Shown piece by piece: positions 42,990 to 56,941 of a DNA stretch of 64,000 nucleotides. Position numbers and translations under genes: made by a program. The notes under the pieces were generated by a model. That model had not been told where the DNA came from. It was given only the letters and a program-made list of their open reading frames with translations, and searched no databases. The stretch lies in IMG/VR virus record IMGVR_UViG_3300027708_000021, one strand, 5' to 3'. Source of the stretch: a virus. Every line of letters starts with the position of its first letter. Positions within the stretch are counted from its first letter, which is position 1.

Positions 42990-43441
42990 TGTGGTATAGC
43001 CGTGTAACAGCCGACTTGAGTGCAATCCCAGATTTTATTGCACACTACGAAACTGAACTCGAACATGCTAAAATGGAATGCCGAGTAGGTGGTATGGTTG
43101 AAAAGAACATTACCAACTTACCTGGTATTACCGAACATAGATTTAATCAACTTCAAGAAATTGAAGCTGTTTTAAATTATCTTAACATTCAACTTAGAAA
43201 AATTCGTCGTAAACATTTTCAAAAATATCTCGAAGGATATGCTCGTGCTTTAACTAGTCGTGATGCGGAAAAATATGTTGATGGAGAAGATGAAGTTATT
43301 GATTTTGAAACATTAATCAATGAAGTGGCCTTATTACGCAATCGCTACTTAGGTATTATGAAAGCAATGGAATCTAAAAACTTTATGCTAGGGCATATTG
43401 TTAGACTTAGAGCCGCCGGAATGGAAGATATACAGGTATAA
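42989..43441 (+). CDS. uvsY: Recombination mediator UvsY
   Basis: AEKYVDGE, KNFMLGHIVRLRAAG; follows uvsX. Confidence 0.8.
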   Translation: MWYSRVTADLSAIPDFIAHYETELEHAKMECRVGGMVEKNITNLPGITEHRFNQLQEIEAVLNYLNIQLRKIRRKHFQKYLEGYARALTSRDAEKYVDGEDEVIDFETLINEVALLRNRYLGIMKAMESKNFMLGHIVRLRAAGMEDIQV

Positions 43442-43442
43442 C

Positions 43443-44195
43443 ATGTTTAAAAACGCAGACGAATCGCATCAACATAGTTTACAAATTCTTAATCAGTTAG
43501 GAAACTATGAAGATTTTATGTTATCAATTAAAAATCTTGCCGATATAGGATGTGGATCTGGTAAAGATTTAGAATGGTGGGCCACCCGTACAGCTAGTGA
43601 TGATCGAGCTACCCCACTTAATATCTCGTGTCAAGGTATAGATATTATGGATAGTTTAGCAGTGGCTAAAAAATATCCTAATATTACATACCAACGAGCA
43701 GACTTTGAAACTACACTGCATACGCCTCCGGATAAATTTGATGTACTTTGGTGTCATGATACTTTTCAATATGCCGTTAATCCAATTCAAACATTAATTA
43801 ATTGGAGAACTATCACTAGCAATGGTGCTATGTTAGCCTTAGCTGTTCCGCAAACTACTAATGTACGTCACAAAGATTTAGATTTTAGTCAGAAAGATGG
43901 CTGCTATTATCACCATACTATAGTCAGTCTTATTCATATGTTGGCCTTAACAGGGTGGGATTGTCGTGCTGGATTCTTTAAAGTAGATCCAATTGATAAC
44001 TGGATTTATGCTGTAGTATATAAAAGCAATCAAGAGCCTAGAGATCTTAAAACTACTCGCTGGTATGATTTGGCTGACGCAAAATTATTGCCTGATTCTG
44101 CCGAAAAATCAGTTATGGCCCGGGGCTTTTTACACCAACGAGATTTAGTATTGCCCTGGTTGGATAAGAGTTTACAGTGGCTCGGAGCCCAATGA
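43443..44195 (+). CDS. Class I SAM-dependent methyltransferase
   Basis: ADIGCGSG, FDVLWCHDTFQY; start ATG 43443. Confidence 0.75.
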   Translation: MFKNADESHQHSLQILNQLGNYEDFMLSIKNLADIGCGSGKDLEWWATRTASDDRATPLNISCQGIDIMDSLAVAKKYPNITYQRADFETTLHTPPDKFDVLWCHDTFQYAVNPIQTLINWRTITSNGAMLALAVPQTTNVRHKDLDFSQKDGCYYHHTIVSLIHMLALTGWDCRAGFFKVDPIDNWIYAVVYKSNQEPRDLKTTRWYDLADAKLLPDSAEKSVMARGFLHQRDLVLPWLDKSLQWLGAQ

Positions 44196-44535: not shown

Positions 44536-45561
44536 ATGTCTACAATTTTAATTAAAAATGGTGTATATCGTAATCAACCTGTAAACAATGTTTCATTTAC
44601 ATTAGTTAAAGGTTATCAAACTGGAGCCAAAGGAGGCTATGTGACTGTAAAATCTGAAGGCTTTTTTGGTGAAGAATACGACGATGTTCGTATTAAAGTA
44701 AGTTCAATTGAAGACTTAGAGTTTGTAACTGAATCTGTTCCTGTTGGTGAATTTGTTGCGCCAATTGTAACCAAACCTGCTACAGAATCGGATGATGAAG
44801 TTATGGATCGTATTGAACAACGATTTGAAATTTTACATCAAATGACTCGTGCTACAATTTCAGGAGATGTCCGAGCTATGATTGTAGTTGGCCCTCCAGG
44901 AGTAGGTAAGTCATACGGTGTAGAATTTGAACTTGAGAAGTCAGGATTATTTGACAAAATCTCAGGTAAAAAAATTAAGTATGAAGTAGTCAAAGGGGCG
45001 ATGACTCCAATTGGTTTATACTGTACTTTATATCGCCACAGTGACGCTAACAACGTTTTGGTATTTGACGATTGTGACTCTGTGTTCCAAGATGAATTGG
45101 CGCTAAACATTCTTAAAGCCGCATTGGACTCTGGCAAGAAGCGTAAAATTCACTGGAATTCAGATAGTGCTATGTTGCGCCGCGAGGGTGTTCCAGATAT
45201 GTTTGACTTCAAAGGTGGTTGTATTTTTATTACCAACTTAAAGTTTGACAATCTTAAATCTAAGAAAATGCAGGACCATTTAGAAGCATTACAAAGTCGT
45301 TGTCACTTTTTGGACTTGACATTGAATACAATGCGTGACAAGTTTTTGCGTATTAAACAAATTTTCCGCCAAGGTCAGTTGTTTAAGGATTATGATTTTA
45401 GTCCAGAGCAAGGTGAAGAAATCCTAGCATTTATGGATACCAATAAAGATAAATTGCGTGAAATGTCCTTGCGTATGGCTCTTAAATTGGCAGACTTAAC
45501 CAAAGTATCGCAAGAAAATTGGAAGGCTTTGGCGGCTAGTACTTGTATGAAGAATAGCTAA
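44536..45561 (+). CDS. AAA+ ATPase
   Basis: GPPGVGKS, LVFDDCD, FITN, ALQSRC; AAGGAG RBS. Confidence 0.85.
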   Translation: MSTILIKNGVYRNQPVNNVSFTLVKGYQTGAKGGYVTVKSEGFFGEEYDDVRIKVSSIEDLEFVTESVPVGEFVAPIVTKPATESDDEVMDRIEQRFEILHQMTRATISGDVRAMIVVGPPGVGKSYGVEFELEKSGLFDKISGKKIKYEVVKGAMTPIGLYCTLYRHSDANNVLVFDDCDSVFQDELALNILKAALDSGKKRKIHWNSDSAMLRREGVPDMFDFKGGCIFITNLKFDNLKSKKMQDHLEALQSRCHFLDLTLNTMRDKFLRIKQIFRQGQLFKDYDFSPEQGEEILAFMDTNKDKLREMSLRMALKLADLTKVSQENWKALAASTCMKNS

Positions 45562-47157: not shown

Positions 47158-47185
47158 TTGACAAACCCAAATATGATGTTACAAT
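47158..47185 (+). promoter_or_regulatory. sigma70-type promoter (extended -10)
   Basis: TTGACA-16-TACAAT with TGn; ATG 6 nt downstream. Confidence 0.7.
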
Positions 47186-47191
47186 AATACT

Positions 47192-47692
47192 ATGCGAATA
47201 TTAACTTTAGACAACGAACCATACGACTTAGATCATCTTCCCGAAGAAATAGATGATATGCGATTTAGTATTTTAGATAACTCCAATCCACAAGATCCAG
47301 ATTATCACTACATTCCATTAATCTTTTTAGAAAGTTTTAATGCTCCTGCGTTAGTGTTAAAAATTGGTGAACATAAAGTTCGTATGCCTGTTGATTGGCA
47401 ACTATTAATCGGTGAACCAGACTTTGGTGACTTAGAAGTTATACCATTATCAGCACTTAATGATCGCGGGTTTAAAGCATTTCAGTTTAATCCAATCACA
47501 AGTTTTAGACCAAGTTTTCTTGATGTAGAAATTTTAGATGTGTATCAGGATGTAGCGTGGTATGCCCCTAAACTTAAAAACGGACAGATGTTATGTGTTC
47601 CTTTAAGTGACGGCAAAGAACCGGAATGTGTATATTTTGTCAAAGATATCAGTCGTACTTGCGAAGTAGTAGATTATAATAAGGCATTTTAA
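47192..47692 (+). CDS. Hypothetical protein (possible Hint-like beta fold)
   Basis: ORF in the replication operon; beta-strand pattern. Confidence 0.6.
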   Translation: MRILTLDNEPYDLDHLPEEIDDMRFSILDNSNPQDPDYHYIPLIFLESFNAPALVLKIGEHKVRMPVDWQLLIGEPDFGDLEVIPLSALNDRGFKAFQFNPITSFRPSFLDVEILDVYQDVAWYAPKLKNGQMLCVPLSDGKEPECVYFVKDISRTCEVVDYNKAF

Positions 47693-47695
47693 TTC

Positions 47696-48142
47696 ATGGA
47701 CAAATTAAGCATCAGCAACGAAATGACACAGTTTGATCGTAAGAATCGAGACTTTTACGACAGCTTGACTGACGAAGAGCGTAAAAAGTTTTCTACATTT
47801 CTAATGATTAGATATGGTAGTAGTGTAAGTGGTGGCAGAGATTTACAGGAATTTTATCTTATTTCTGCTAACGAAAGACTTAATAAGAATTTCTTCTCCT
47901 TACACAAGCATCCTAAACTACAATGGCTAATGGCAACAACTGTAAGTCCTGGTATGGGAACATTTAGGCATAATTGGATAGCAACAAAGAAAAAAGAACC
48001 CAGCTCAAGTAGTATTAAAAAACAAATAGCGGAATGGTACCCACAATTAAAAAACGATGAAGTAGAGCTAATGGCAAGAATTAATACTAAAAAAGAGATA
48101 GACGCACATATGAAACAATTAGGACAGGAGAGTAAAAAATGA
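47696..48142 (+). CDS. Probable clamp-loader small subunit (T4 gp62-like)
   Basis: FLMIRYGS...ANERLN...LQW...W...KK...IAEWY pattern resembles gp62. Confidence 0.5.
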   Translation: MDKLSISNEMTQFDRKNRDFYDSLTDEERKKFSTFLMIRYGSSVSGGRDLQEFYLISANERLNKNFFSLHKHPKLQWLMATTVSPGMGTFRHNWIATKKKEPSSSSIKKQIAEWYPQLKNDEVELMARINTKKEIDAHMKQLGQESKK

Positions 48143-48375
48143 TTTGGTTTTTTTCAAAACAATCTAACCCAGCAGAGCCAGATTTCAATCAAGTAGAATA
48201 TATTGATACAGACGGCACAGTATATAGATATAAGCCGGTAAAACATATTACAGCCAACGAAGTCGCTAGGCTTTTACCGTTGTTTTTAAATCCCAATACT
48301 ACAGCAGCAGATTCAATTGCTTACATTAAAAAAGAAAATTTAGAACGAAACTTTGTTATTAACCCAGAAGAATGA
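48139..48375 (+). CDS. Hypothetical protein
   Basis: GGAG RBS; ATGA overlaps at both ends. Confidence 0.6.
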   Translation: MIWFFSKQSNPAEPDFNQVEYIDTDGTVYRYKPVKHITANEVARLLPLFLNPNTTAADSIAYIKKENLERNFVINPEE

Positions 48376-49046
48376 GTTATACTTGCCAGTATTGTAAGAA
48401 GAATTTTATCAAAGAATCTTCTTTGACTGTGCATTCTTGCGAGCCCAGGAGGCGTAGACAAGAAAAAGATGAAGCTGGAGTTAGATTAGGATTTAATTCT
48501 TATATAAAATTTTACGAATTAACCCAAGGATCAGCTAAGTTAAAAACCTATGATGATTTTTGTGAAAGTCCTTACTACAAAGCCTTTGTAAAATTTGGCA
48601 GATATTGTGTAAACACAAAAGTTATTAATCCGGCTCGCTTTACAGAATGGGTACTAAAGCAAAATAAAAAATTAGACTACTGGTGTAGTGATAAACTCTA
48701 TGAAGAATATTTATTATTCTATCTTAAAGTAGAACGAATGGAAGATGCGTTGGCCCGTGGTATAGAACACGCACTAACATGGGCCGAAGAAAAGGAAGCG
48801 CCGTCGCAAGATTATCTGCGTTATGGTAATCACAATGTTATAACAAGTTCTATAGTCAACGGCCGTATTAGTCCGTGGATATTATATAATTGTGAATCGG
48901 GGCAGAGATTTTTATCTGAAATGAGTACAGAACATCAAGCAATGGTGTGGACATATATAGATCCTGATGTATGGACAAAAAAATTAAAAGACGATCCAGC
49001 TAATCGTATTGAAGCACAAGAATTATTACAAAAGGCAGGATGGTAA
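48372..49046 (+). CDS. N-terminal zinc-finger protein of the replication cluster
   Basis: YTCQYCKKNFIKESSLTVHSC. Confidence 0.65.
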   Translation: MSYTCQYCKKNFIKESSLTVHSCEPRRRRQEKDEAGVRLGFNSYIKFYELTQGSAKLKTYDDFCESPYYKAFVKFGRYCVNTKVINPARFTEWVLKQNKKLDYWCSDKLYEEYLLFYLKVERMEDALARGIEHALTWAEEKEAPSQDYLRYGNHNVITSSIVNGRISPWILYNCESGQRFLSEMSTEHQAMVWTYIDPDVWTKKLKDDPANRIEAQELLQKAGW

Positions 49047-49633
49047 TGTCAGCAGATATTGATATCGATTTGGCCGATAGAGAACAAGTATTAAAACTTA
49101 TTCAGGCTATACCCGCACGACAATTACATCAAGGGCAAGTTCGCAAGCATAATTCGGGTGTTTATGTTACTGACATTCCTTATGATCCAATTAACCAATG
49201 TGCGGCTATTACATACGAAGAAGCAGAACAACGCAATTATTTTAAAATTGATTTATTAAATATGTCAGTTTATCAACTAATTAAAAATCCAGAACACTAT
49301 GAAGAAATATTAAAGAAAGAGCCACCTTGGAAAAGACTGTGGACTGATATTGAGTGGACTAAACAACTAGCCCATATAGGTAACTATACTGATTTATTAA
49401 TAAAAATGAAGCCCGATTCAATTCCAAGGATGGCGGCCTTTATTGCTATTATTAGACCAGGCAAAGCGCATTTACAAAATTGTACTTGGGAAACTGTATT
49501 TGAATCTGTATGGGATGGCAACGACACTAAGGGGTTTATTTTTAAACATTCGCATTCAATAAGTTATGCGGCTTTAGTAGCCTTGCATATGAATTTATTG
49601 GACGAAATCAGTCCATTCGCCGAACTAAAGTAA
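49046..49633 (+). CDS. Miniature DNA polymerase III alpha (DnaE)-like catalytic core
   Basis: ADIDID, KHNSGVYV, FKIDLLN, AIIRPG, FKHSHSISYA; TAATG coupling to the upstream gene. Confidence 0.75.
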   Translation: MSADIDIDLADREQVLKLIQAIPARQLHQGQVRKHNSGVYVTDIPYDPINQCAAITYEEAEQRNYFKIDLLNMSVYQLIKNPEHYEEILKKEPPWKRLWTDIEWTKQLAHIGNYTDLLIKMKPDSIPRMAAFIAIIRPGKAHLQNCTWETVFESVWDGNDTKGFIFKHSHSISYAALVALHMNLLDEISPFAELK

Positions 49634-49985
49634 TACTCTTACGCTTGGATTTTTTTCGGGCCATTTCTGCTAAACTACAAACTGGGCCGTGTAAAACTTC
49701 GAGGTCTTTGTTAATAAAAGTACGCAAATAAATTCTAAATGGGTCCCAATCTTGTTTTAAAAAGATATTAATAGGGATGGATCTGTTACTTTCCCACCAC
49801 CAAGTATTGGCTAATTCTAAGAATAGTTTTTTTGCTTCTAAATCAGTTATACTTCCGAAGTCATAGATAGTAGTAATGACATCATCGCGATTTTGTATAA
49901 TCCCTACATATTCTTGGGAGGCATAGACACACAGCGTTATAAACGGGTATTTGTCGGTTAATTTTGTGAAGATTTCTGCGTTCAT
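49608..49985 (-). CDS. Hypothetical late protein
   Basis: ORF with WWWESNR; minus-strand TAAATA at 50009-50014. Confidence 0.65.
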   Translation of the reverse strand: MNAEIFTKLTDKYPFITLCVYASQEYVGIIQNRDDVITTIYDFGSITDLEAKKLFLELANTWWWESNRSIPINIFLKQDWDPFRIYLRTFINKDLEVLHGPVCSLAEMARKKSKRKSITLVRRMD

Positions 49986-53911: not shown

Positions 53912-54995
53912 AATAACTAAGCGCCAGCGTATAGACGAAGGTTTATTGGGTGATGTAAAAAATGCTATTACTAGAAAAGCTACGGCTGTTTATAAAGATA
54001 AAACACAAGCTATTAAAGACAAAGTAGCGGCTGTAAAAAACATTCCAACCCAAGCTAAACAAGACTATCTTGGCGGTGTAAAAGCTGCTAAAAGATCAGG
54101 CGAAGATAATAATCTAATGGCAAGAATGGCTGGTGTTGGTAACATTTTTACCAAAGCAGGCGACCGCTGGCAGGAAAAACAATGGGATAAAACACAGGAT
54201 ACAAGAAATAGTCAAGCCGCTGATGCGGCTAAAATCTTGGCTAGAAAAGGTTTTAAAGTTGATACTACAACTCCGGCCGCCAGAGCACAAACTCCTACTA
54301 GAGTTAAACAACAAAAACTTGCTCAACTACAACAGGCATTTGATCAAGAATTTGAACTTATGCCAAATGCGGCTCAAATGCATGCTCAGCAACAAGCAGC
54401 AAAAGCAGAAAAAGCAGCAAAAGCCTATGCTCCAAAAACACAACAAAATATAGCGGCACAAAATAAACAAATGAGTCCACAGTCAGGAATTAAAGAAGCA
54501 CAAGTTGATCCAAATAAACTGGCCACTATGAAAGCAAGGGCGAAAGCTCCTGGTGTTACCCAACCAAACAATGACACAACAAAAAAAGATATCGCTACTG
54601 AATTTCCAGGCTGGATAAGGCAAAAAATACCAGGATTGGATAAAGCCCCGCCTGAAGTTACAACAAAATTAAACGGCATTTTTTCACAAATGAAAATACA
54701 AGCAGGAAAAAATCCTAAAGCAGTTGATCAAGCATTTCAACAATATGCTGATTTAGCATTATCTTCTGTAGCGCCGGCTCAAGATCAGCAAAGACAGCAA
54801 GGGCAACAAGCTCAAGGTGGAGCAGATCCTAGCGCAGGATATGCCCGCAATGGTATTGCCAACTCCATAGGATTAGACTCATCGGCTGTTGCTGCTCTCC
54901 AACAGCGTATTATACAAAATAAAGAACCACTTAGATCCACAGATACTGGTTCTCCTACTGTAAATAAATTAATACAGGCGCTGTTAAAGAAATGA
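53898..54995 (+). CDS. Putative internal head/ejection protein (Q/A/K-rich)
   Basis: MQIHEI...IDE|G leader; internal IKE|A. Confidence 0.5.
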   Translation: MQIHEITKRQRIDEGLLGDVKNAITRKATAVYKDKTQAIKDKVAAVKNIPTQAKQDYLGGVKAAKRSGEDNNLMARMAGVGNIFTKAGDRWQEKQWDKTQDTRNSQAADAAKILARKGFKVDTTTPAARAQTPTRVKQQKLAQLQQAFDQEFELMPNAAQMHAQQQAAKAEKAAKAYAPKTQQNIAAQNKQMSPQSGIKEAQVDPNKLATMKARAKAPGVTQPNNDTTKKDIATEFPGWIRQKIPGLDKAPPEVTTKLNGIFSQMKIQAGKNPKAVDQAFQQYADLALSSVAPAQDQQRQQGQQAQGGADPSAGYARNGIANSIGLDSSAVAALQQRIIQNKEPLRSTDTGSPTVNKLIQALLKK

Positions 54996-56941
54996 GCTTA
55001 CTTAAAGAAGGCGGCAATGTTTTCAAGAACGATGATAAACAAGCTCTGACCCAAAGAATCAATCAAACTGATGTAGCTATTACAGTTGATTGGTTAGAAC
55101 AATTAACTGACCTCGATTTGCGCGGCGAGATAGATCCTGATACTGGCTATCCAGAACGCTGGTTAGGGAGCTCAGGTAAGAAATCTACATCGGGAGATCT
55201 TGATTTAGCTGTCAATGCTAACGAAATCACCCAGCAACAATTAGTAGCAGAGCTGACCCAATGGTGTAATAGTCATAAATTAGATCCAAAAGAATATGTT
55301 AAGAACGCAGGCGGCCAAGTACACTTTAAAACGCCAATAGGCGGTAATCCAGACAAAGGCTATGTACAGACAGATTTTATGTTTATGAAAGATATGGGCG
55401 TAGGTCAGTTCTTTTTACAAGCATCACCTAATTCAAAATTTTCAGGTCAAGATAGAGCAGTGGTAGTAAATTCACTAGCTAAAGCATTTGGTTATAAATT
55501 AGACATGCGTCGTGGTATTATCGATCGTGCTAATGAAGAAGTAGTTGAAACGGATCCTGACAAGATCGCTAAATTATTACTCAGTCCCGGAGCGACAAAG
55601 AAAGATCTTACCTCCGTGGAAAACATTGTCCAGGCATTAGAAAAAGACCCTAAAAAAGATGAAAAATTAGCAGATGCTAGAACACATTTCCAAAAAGTTG
55701 GCGTCCCATTTTTTGAAAATACAAGCACAGAACTTTATACAGAAGTACATTTTTTAGCTCGCTTGCGTGATCGTATTGTTAATCAAGGCATGGAAAAATT
55801 AATCGAAAATACAGAAGTACAAGGTGGCAAAGCCAAAGGCATCGAACACATCGAAGATTTAGTATTTAGAAAAGGAACCGCAGGTATTAAGGAAGCACTT
55901 GCGGTCATTGAACATCTTAAAGATAACACAAAATCATCTGTTACAGTTAAGTGGGATGGCAAACCTGCGGTAGTGTTTGGGCGCGAACCTAATGGAACTT
56001 TTGTGCTAACCGATGTAGCCGGGTTTGGTGCTGTAGGCTATAATGGTATGTTTACTAGTCCAAAACAAATCACACAACATTTAGCTAATCGCGATAACGA
56101 AGCAAAAGCCCAAGGCAAGTCAGCTAATCGGGTGGCTCAGCTAGCCCCCATATATCAAACATTATGGCCCATGCTTGAAGCCGCAACTCCGAAAGATTTT
56201 AAAGGTTATATCCAGGGCGATTTGTTGTATATTGCAACTCCTCCAGAAGTATCAGGCGCTTTTGTATTCAAACCTAATACAGTGGAGTATAATATTCCAG
56301 CTAGTTCTAAATTAGGCGAAGAAATTGCCGAAAGCCATGTGGGGATCGCTATACACACTTATTATAAAGAACAAGGCGCTGGTAAAGAACCATTAAGCAA
56401 GGTTGATCTAAATACAGTTCCAGGTTTGTTATTAATTGAACCTATAGCCCCGCAAGAAAATGTTAAGCCTACAGATAGTAGTTTAGTTAAGCAATTGAAG
56501 AGTTTGGTAAGCAGTAGCGGAACAGCTATTAATACTCTGTTTAGCCCTGCTGAATTACGCCAATTACAAATTAGTGATTTACCAAGACTATGCGTTGACT
56601 ATATTAATAGTTTAGTCAAAGATGATTCTGTAGCAGACTTTGATCCCAATACATTGTTACCAGGATTTGGCAAATGGTTACAGTCTAAAGTGACTCCCCG
56701 CAAATACAACAACATTGTGGAATACTTACAAAGTCCTCGTAGTAACATGGACGGTATGAGTGCGGCGTTTACAGCCTTTGTATTGCTACACAATATCAAG
56801 ATGGATATGCTACAGCAGCTAGACCGTCAACACCCTGGGCAAGAAGGCTGGGTAATCGCTCACCCAGGTGGAATTACTAAATTTGTTAATAGATTTGGCT
56901 TTTCCCGGGCAAATGCGGCCCAGAATGCCCCACAATCCTAA
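54992..56941 (+). CDS. Pol-beta-type nucleotidyltransferase fused to an ATP-dependent ligase-like domain
   Basis: LGSSGKKSTSGDLDL (55163-55207); KWDG (55949-55960), IQGDLL, EGWVI, TKFV. Confidence 0.65.
   Translation: MSLLKEGGNVFKNDDKQALTQRINQTDVAITVDWLEQLTDLDLRGEIDPDTGYPERWLGSSGKKSTSGDLDLAVNANEITQQQLVAELTQWCNSHKLDPKEYVKNAGGQVHFKTPIGGNPDKGYVQTDFMFMKDMGVGQFFLQASPNSKFSGQDRAVVVNSLAKAFGYKLDMRRGIIDRANEEVVETDPDKIAKLLLSPGATKKDLTSVENIVQALEKDPKKDEKLADARTHFQKVGVPFFENTSTELYTEVHFLARLRDRIVNQGMEKLIENTEVQGGKAKGIEHIEDLVFRKGTAGIKEALAVIEHLKDNTKSSVTVKWDGKPAVVFGREPNGTFVLTDVAGFGAVGYNGMFTSPKQITQHLANRDNEAKAQGKSANRVAQLAPIYQTLWPMLEAATPKDFKGYIQGDLLYIATPPEVSGAFVFKPNTVEYNIPASSKLGEEIAESHVGIAIHTYYKEQGAGKEPLSKVDLNTVPGLLLIEPIAPQENVKPTDSSLVKQLKSLVSSSGTAINTLFSPAELRQLQISDLPRLCVDYINSLVKDDSVADFDPNTLLPGFGKWLQSKVTPRKYNNIVEYLQSPRSNMDGMSAAFTAFVLLHNIKMDMLQQLDRQHPGQEGWVIAHPGGITKFVNRFGFSRANAAQNAPQS

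Follow-up and report, generated by a model that had tools for sequence, protein, structure and literature searches.

A probable C-terminal subunit of a split, minimal DNA polymerase III alpha in the replication module of an uncultured giant phage

Gene order around the C-unit

The window analyzed here, a 64-kb stretch of viral DNA, belongs to an uncultured T4-related giant myophage, in which PHROG and Pfam searches found a tail sheath, a tail tube, and a large terminase. Its replication and recombination genes encode a gp32-like SSB, UvsX, UvsY, a UvsW-like helicase, a primase, and a DnaB/gp41-like helicase. Between UvsW and the primase lies a tight plus-strand run of genes for proteins of 166, 148, and 78 amino acids (aa), a 224-aa zinc-finger protein, and a 195-aa protein (49046..49633, plus strand) that we interpret as the metal- and template-binding C-terminal unit (C-unit) of a split, minimal DNA polymerase III (Pol III) alpha. 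The first-pass annotation had set this gene near primase and helicase in a T4-type replication context, a placement that the Pfam and PHROG scans of the window and synteny with the phages Ettore, 121Q, and Atu_ph07 both uphold.

The three upstream genes (47192..48375, plus strand; PHROGs 11279 and 11758) are packed, with starts and stops overlapping or spaced by 3 nt, and probably belong to the same operon as the zinc-finger and C-unit genes. The gp62-like label earlier given to the 148-aa gene found no confirmation in Pfam or PHROGs. Just upstream of the 166-aa gene is a putative sigma-70-like promoter (TTGACA-16-TACAAT with TG, 11/12; 47158..47185, plus strand), and a terminator-like hairpin (49643..49661, plus strand) begins 10 nt past the C-unit stop, each identified as a consensus match only. 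A convergent gene of 125 aa (PHROG 11637; 49608..49985, minus strand) closes the run, its 3' end overlapping that of the C-unit by 26 nt.

The order of UvsW, the 166-aa and 148-aa proteins, the zinc finger, the C-unit, the convergent 125-aa gene, a 384-aa protein, and primase is conserved, being common to the IMG/VR loci and to Ettore, 121Q, and Atu_ph07 at 26-51% identity. Of the 145 loci long enough to include it, 144 have the convergent gene, as do the same three phages, in which its tail-to-tail overlap with the C-unit spans 14-17 nt. Elsewhere in the module, a SAM-dependent methyltransferase (Pfam E 2e-10; 43398-44195) and a 341-aa protein with weak AAA matches (PHROG 1250; 44536-45561) separate UvsY from UvsW; the gene directly after UvsY in 121Q encodes a DnaQ-like "DNA polymerase exonuclease subunit." Further along the window, 54992-56941 encodes a 649-aa protein matching Pfam DUF6267 (E 1.5e-35).

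The zinc-finger gene (48372..49046, plus strand; PHROG 11058) encodes an N-terminal CxxC...HxC finger and an all-helical body, predicted with a pLDDT of 92.2 as a small finger followed by about 14 helices. Its TAA stop shares one base with the C-unit ATG (TAATG, 49044-49048), which substantiates the earlier report that the two genes are coupled. The zinc-finger gene precedes the C-unit in all 140 loci having both, as it does in Ettore, 121Q, and Atu_ph07, and the stop and start abut or overlap in 93 of these 140. The remaining 47 loci carry 0.2-3.1 kb of varied accessory genes between the two, and in 121Q and Atu_ph07 one or two genes are inserted there; given the insertions in 47 of 140 loci, coupling is common and not obligatory. 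The junction is an insertion hot spot (loci L011-L173), occupied by proteins of 112-124 aa and by larger open reading frames (ORFs) of 240-500 aa. Searches with the zinc-finger protein returned no Foldseek match to its fold, a best Z of 4.9 in a wide VIA search with none convincing, only C2H2 fingers (residues 2-25) when its profile was compared with the PDB, and only virus-only unnamed clusters in an atlas search. The idea that it might be a helicase loader went unsupported, as the C-domain of T4 gp59 reached a Z of 4.0 among many ties.

C-family motifs, fold, and conservation of the C-unit

The C-unit ORF is intact. It was listed as 49040..49633 (197 aa) by virtue of an in-frame ATG at 49040; since homologues open with MSADIDID, which matches the ATG at 49046, we place the start there, giving 195 aa, with an AAGG/GGCAGGA-rich stretch preceding it. 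The order of DnaE motifs is kept: DIDID, HNSGVY, KIDLL, IRPG, and FKHSHSISYA. The DIDID motif (D4, D6, and D8; 49055..49069, plus strand) forms the metal-binding DxD strand at the extreme N-terminus, which in a structural alignment falls at about residue 397 of E. coli alpha. Aligned by HMM to E. coli alpha (2hnh), K67-I-D69 (49244..49252, plus strand), with the third catalytic Asp and a conserved Lys, corresponds to K553/D555, and two finger motifs on the same strand, R137-P138-G139 (49454..49462) and FKHSHSISYA (49541..49570), correspond to residues 639-641 and to FNKSHSAAYA at 756-765. The last motif has His in the window lineage, whereas the family consensus (FKKSHAxAYA) and E. coli (K758) have Lys. 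Sequence and HMM alignment thus agree with the first-pass description of an intact ORF with five DnaE motifs in order, and the accompanying claim that this ORF holds no PHP, HhH, or OB domain stands as well, no Pfam match to these having been found.

Pfam is nearly blind to the C-unit, giving only DNA_pol3_finger at E 0.076, and PHROG 11778, annotated "DNA polymerase" (profile length 197), matches it at E 8e-55. We built a family profile from 82 representatives, no two of them from the same 50%-identity cluster and all sharing 26-61% identity with the window C-unit, and compared it with all PDB sequences. The nine distinct matches were all Pol III alpha (E. coli, Thermus, and Mycobacterium), at E 7e-6 to 3e-4 and with KxD, RPG, and KSHSxxYA aligned. 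An AlphaFold2 model of the 197-aa form (pLDDT 94.5, pTM 0.87) returned Pol III alpha or PolC as each of its top 16 Foldseek matches. With VIA-align, the top 14 structural matches were all C-family polymerases; C-family chains scored Z 6.4-9.8, against 3.9 for the first unrelated chain, with 186-196 of the 197 residues aligned over E. coli alpha 397-781, Taq alpha 458-867, Mtb DnaE1 416-838, and PolC 968-1358. These motif, profile, and structure matches to the C family are far beyond chance.

The same alignments define what was kept. Some 190 C-unit residues cover about 385-420 residues of DnaE or PolC, and in the model the segment from the DxD strand to the HxxG strand is only about 25 residues long. 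Because VIA-align places nearly all of its residues on DnaE/PolC, the modeled C-unit comprises the latter half of the palm and a finger of reduced length; the thumb and a large share of the fingers have been cut out. It bears the metal-binding acidic residues of DxD and KxD on a Pol-beta-type palm sheet. By Pfam and the model alignment, it lacks the thumb, PHP, clamp-binding, HhH, and OB regions of DnaE. The first-pass annotation had proposed a drastically shortened C-family catalytic core, which the PHROG, profile-to-PDB, and AlphaFold2/VIA results bear out, and had named a structure other than a Pol-beta-like palm as grounds for abandoning the proposal; the AlphaFold2 model adopts the Pol III-type palm fold.

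Bacterial DnaE and PolC (E. coli 2hnh; Taq 2hpi and 3e0d; G. kaustophilus PolC 3f2b) share with the C-unit the Pol-beta-type palm with DxD and KxD, the RPG and KSHSxxYA finger motifs, and a structural alignment over its full length, although sequence identity is only 11-19%. They are single chains of 1,100-1,450 aa, whereas the phage enzyme that we describe below would consist of two chains totaling about 370 aa, with the break falling after the GS-loop helix and before the DxD strand, and would be devoid of PHP, thumb, clamp-binding, HhH, and OB domains.

Conservation argues that the shortened protein is maintained. Across the 82 representatives (197-aa numbering), D6, D8, K69, D71, R139, and P140 are invariant and D10 (in at least 90%), H37, G40, K169, and H172 nearly so; across 124 unique orthologues, all eleven of these residues are invariant, including all three Asp of DIDID. 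The ORF is intact in 158 of the 159 IMG/VR loci with an orthologue, and pairwise dN/dS (NG86; 437 pairs restricted to dS 0.05-1.5) reaches at most 0.23, with a median of 0.12. The claim that all three catalytic Asp are retained therefore holds across orthologues under purifying selection, and the decay or loss of Asp that would have spoken against an enzyme was not seen among them. We accordingly reject the reading of the C-unit as a pseudogene or relic. The single broken orthologue (L085:6007-6324) has a premature stop leaving 106 aa, by frameshift, sequencing error, or a broken copy. A related possibility is that the protein persists as a non-catalytic remnant with a structural or regulatory place in the replisome, as might be entertained for a protein so extremely reduced, the polymerase activity of which is predicted from its sequence only; however, the catalytic residues are invariant in both the 82 diverse and the 124 close sequences at a dN/dS of 0.12, and the GRGS loop of the partner protein described below is likewise invariant, so that we consider a remnant very improbable.

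The family is large: clustering at 90% identity gives 7,445 groups, and at 50% it leaves 359 representatives. The window C-unit shares no more than 42% identity with its counterparts in cultured phages (33-42% with those of PA5oct, Atu_ph07, and 121Q), and a 352-kb ENA scaffold carries a relative 81-83% identical to it.

The N-terminal half and its natural fusion

Pol-beta-type enzymes hold the triphosphate with a GS/GRGS loop, and in DnaE this loop and the helix holding the incoming triphosphate precede the DxD strand. The C-unit begins right at the DxD strand, without the GRGS loop. In relatives of the window phage, the loop and helix are carried by a separate gene of about 170 aa, the N-unit, which matches Pfam PF07733 above cut-off (profile positions 22-94) and ends in EFLR/K. 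A whole-genome PF07733 scan of Ettore, a PA5oct-like phage, gave a single match above cut-off, a 169-aa ORF ending ...GVGRGSSVASY...EFLK and lying 44 kb from the C-unit of that phage. Two near-complete IMG/VR relatives, G001 and G002 (345 and 342 kb), with C-units 71% identical to that of the window, each encode a 174-aa N-unit orthologue ending in EFLR about 95 kb from the C-unit; both units are thus present in two of two such genomes. Across Ettore, PA5oct, 121Q, Atu_ph07, G001, and G002, the distance between the units ranges from 31 to 182 kb.

The N-unit ends where the C-unit begins. Its profile maps to residues 348-392 of E. coli alpha and the C-unit starts at about 397, which places the break between FERFLN and PDFDVDF. 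The GRGS loop is invariant in the N-unit family, which comprises at least 8,000 clusters at 90% identity, many of them named "DNA polymerase III alpha subunit" by JGI. Among cultured phage records, 96 have the C-unit and 99 the N-unit, and the genus counts match almost exactly. In the 64-kb window, neither the N-units of Ettore and G002 as tblastn queries nor a G[RK]GS scan of all six reading frames gave any match; judging from its relatives, we infer that the window phage has one. Two Alishewanella phages (OQ508957.1 and OQ508956.1), whose 141-kb genomes are too small to count as jumbo, encode the N- and C-units at a distance of about 11 kb, so that the split enzyme is not confined to genomes above 200 kb.

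A natural fusion joins the two halves. The 375-aa protein P0173 contains the N-half, a 9-aa linker, and the C-half in one gene: the N-unit profile aligns to residues 76-180 (hhalign probability 99, E 6e-18), which end in ..KEFIK, and the linker leads into ADFDID at the start of a C-unit spanning residues 190-373 (E 8e-27). The gene (L176:1066-2193) is intact, matches PF07733, and was verified at the DNA level on a 2.4-kb ENA metagenomic contig of 25% GC, where its 3' end and a convergent gene overlap, an arrangement shared with the window. This fusion, from a single contig, argues that the two units work together as one enzyme. No further fused forms like P0173 were found in a scan of IMG/VR, a JGI metagenome scan for such fusions returned only two full-length DnaE genes, and a word-index search, which is weak evidence, found no longer fused relatives of the C-unit. 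A split of another sort than that between the phage N- and C-units occurs on a 32.7-kb metagenomic contig (L177:6366-10382), where a full-length DnaE is divided into two consecutive ORFs, one of 382 aa for the PHP domain and one of 933 aa for the remainder.

These results bear on whether the 195-aa C-unit might be a stand-alone minimal nucleotidyltransferase that requires no partner. All three acidic residues and the finger motifs do lie in one chain, and that chain alone is predicted to fold confidently. Because it starts at the DxD strand without the GS/GRGS loop, however, the C-unit does not appear to be self-sufficient; moreover, an N-unit ending at the split point co-occurs with it in the same phage groups and is fused to it in one natural gene, and we give a partnerless enzyme scarcely any credence. 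Of the first-pass proposal of a minimal nucleotidyltransferase, then, the shortened core with its catalytic Asp stands and the self-sufficiency does not, the GRGS loop residing on a separate N-unit in relatives; the alternative offered at the same time, a subunit of a split polymerase, gains support from the N-unit that ends at the split point in these relatives.

We conclude that the C-unit is very probably the C-terminal subunit of a two-subunit, stripped-down C-family nucleotidyltransferase specific to the T4-related group 2.2 jumbo phages, which we take to comprise the Rak2/121Q, PA5oct, and Atu_ph07 lineages along with very large uncultured clades. The N-unit would supply the GRGS loop and helix in trans, as is seen in the gene content of relatives and expected for the window phage, and, as the N-unit ends a few residues before the C-unit starts, the two chains would have to assemble to complete one active site.

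Role beside a family B replicase

The relatives also constrain what this enzyme might do. A family B polymerase (PolB) is encoded in all three relatives searched (Ettore, G001, and G002), and no PHP domain was found anywhere in the G001 and G002 genomes. No PolB was found in the 64-kb window by tblastn with the G002 PolB; by analogy with its relatives, the window phage would be expected to encode one. Because the relatives encode PolB too, the small enzyme would accompany the T4-type replicase rather than replace it: gene content indicates that the split enzyme does not take the place of gp43, and it is probably not the main replicase.

Among catalytic roles, we favor an auxiliary one in primer extension or DNA repair, with about even confidence, because the gene holds a fixed position in the UvsW-primase-helicase module. 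The assembled enzyme of about 370 aa would act beside the family B replicase, adding nucleotides to primers or DNA ends. In B. subtilis, DnaE serves next to PolC as a second polymerase that extends primers, and by analogy the phage enzyme, in its predicted role, would likewise be a C-family auxiliary beside a different main replicase; B. subtilis DnaE, however, is full-length and clamp-binding, whereas the phage enzyme is split and its main replicase belongs to family B. Any mechanism beyond the completion of one Pol III-type active site by two chains is our inference.

For an enzyme with no thumb and most of its fingers missing, template-directed synthesis is not assured. The main rival to an auxiliary polymerase is an active two-piece enzyme that does not copy a template, such as a tailing or terminal transferase, an enzyme attaching nucleotides to DNA ends or proteins, or one that synthesizes a signaling nucleotide. 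The Pol-beta superfamily includes many non-polymerase transferases, and the loss of the thumb and most of the fingers, the lack of a clamp-binding, HhH, or OB part, and the presence in relatives of a complete PolB replicase would all suit such an enzyme. Against it, the C-family-specific RPG and KSHxxxYA motifs are kept invariant, which would be unexpected had the handling of template and dNTP been abandoned, and the gene sits within a replication and recombination module; we therefore hold a non-templated transferase to be rather unlikely.

At the other end of the range, the auxiliary enzyme could be a genuine template-directed polymerase that works with the adjacent primase and helicase, the zinc-finger protein compensating for the thumb. 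Here the zinc-finger protein would be a DNA-binding accessory and the enzyme would extend primers beside the family B replicase. We regard this full form as unlikely. A complex prediction that combined alignments for the N-unit and C-unit with a zinc-finger protein lacking an alignment scored 0.00, a value that speaks neither for nor against an association. If the enzyme of about 370 aa, or its natural single-chain form of 375 aa, were truly template-directed, it would be much smaller than any other C-family polymerase.

The split minimal Pol III alpha of group 2.2 jumbo phages has already been described from sequence (Iyer, Anantharaman, Krishnan, Burroughs, and Aravind, 2021, Viruses 13:63, PMC7824862). 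The portions of that article available to us describe an N-terminal NTP-binding and a C-terminal Mg- and template-binding protein encoded by distant genes, which accompany a family B polymerase and for which a role on one strand or in repair was suggested, and they argue that the split form models Pol III before its accessory domains were gained (Iyer et al., 2021). Our tests agree in every respect with the description in those portions: the window C-unit has the same family, size, motif content, and T4-like replication context, and the relatives of the window phage have the distant N-unit and PolB exactly as described there (Iyer et al., 2021). It differs from the group 2.2 copies in coming from an uncultured lineage and in having His for the consensus Lys in the KSH finger motif. 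The split arrangement is thus already known, and the window copy is an ordinary member of the family from an uncultured lineage. The fused 375-aa form and the conserved upstream zinc-finger gene receive no mention in the same portions of the article (Iyer et al., 2021), and the fusion and the conserved, breakable zinc-finger coupling are possibly new here. A literature search found no bench test of polymerase activity for any family member, and the portions of the PA5oct omics paper available to us contain no mention of the N- or C-unit genes.

The value of the present analysis lies in a clean confirmation of the split enzyme, in a fused form that offers a ready-made expression construct, and in a conserved zinc-finger neighbor. 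Environmental giant phages carry the split enzyme family in great abundance, with about 7,400 protein clusters at 90% identity. Should the reconstituted enzyme prove active, it would define, at about one-third the size of DnaE, the minimal catalytic core of the bacterial replicative polymerases, offering enzymologists a compact scaffold and a model of Pol III before accessory domains, and these phages would possess a replisome that combines family B and family C polymerases.
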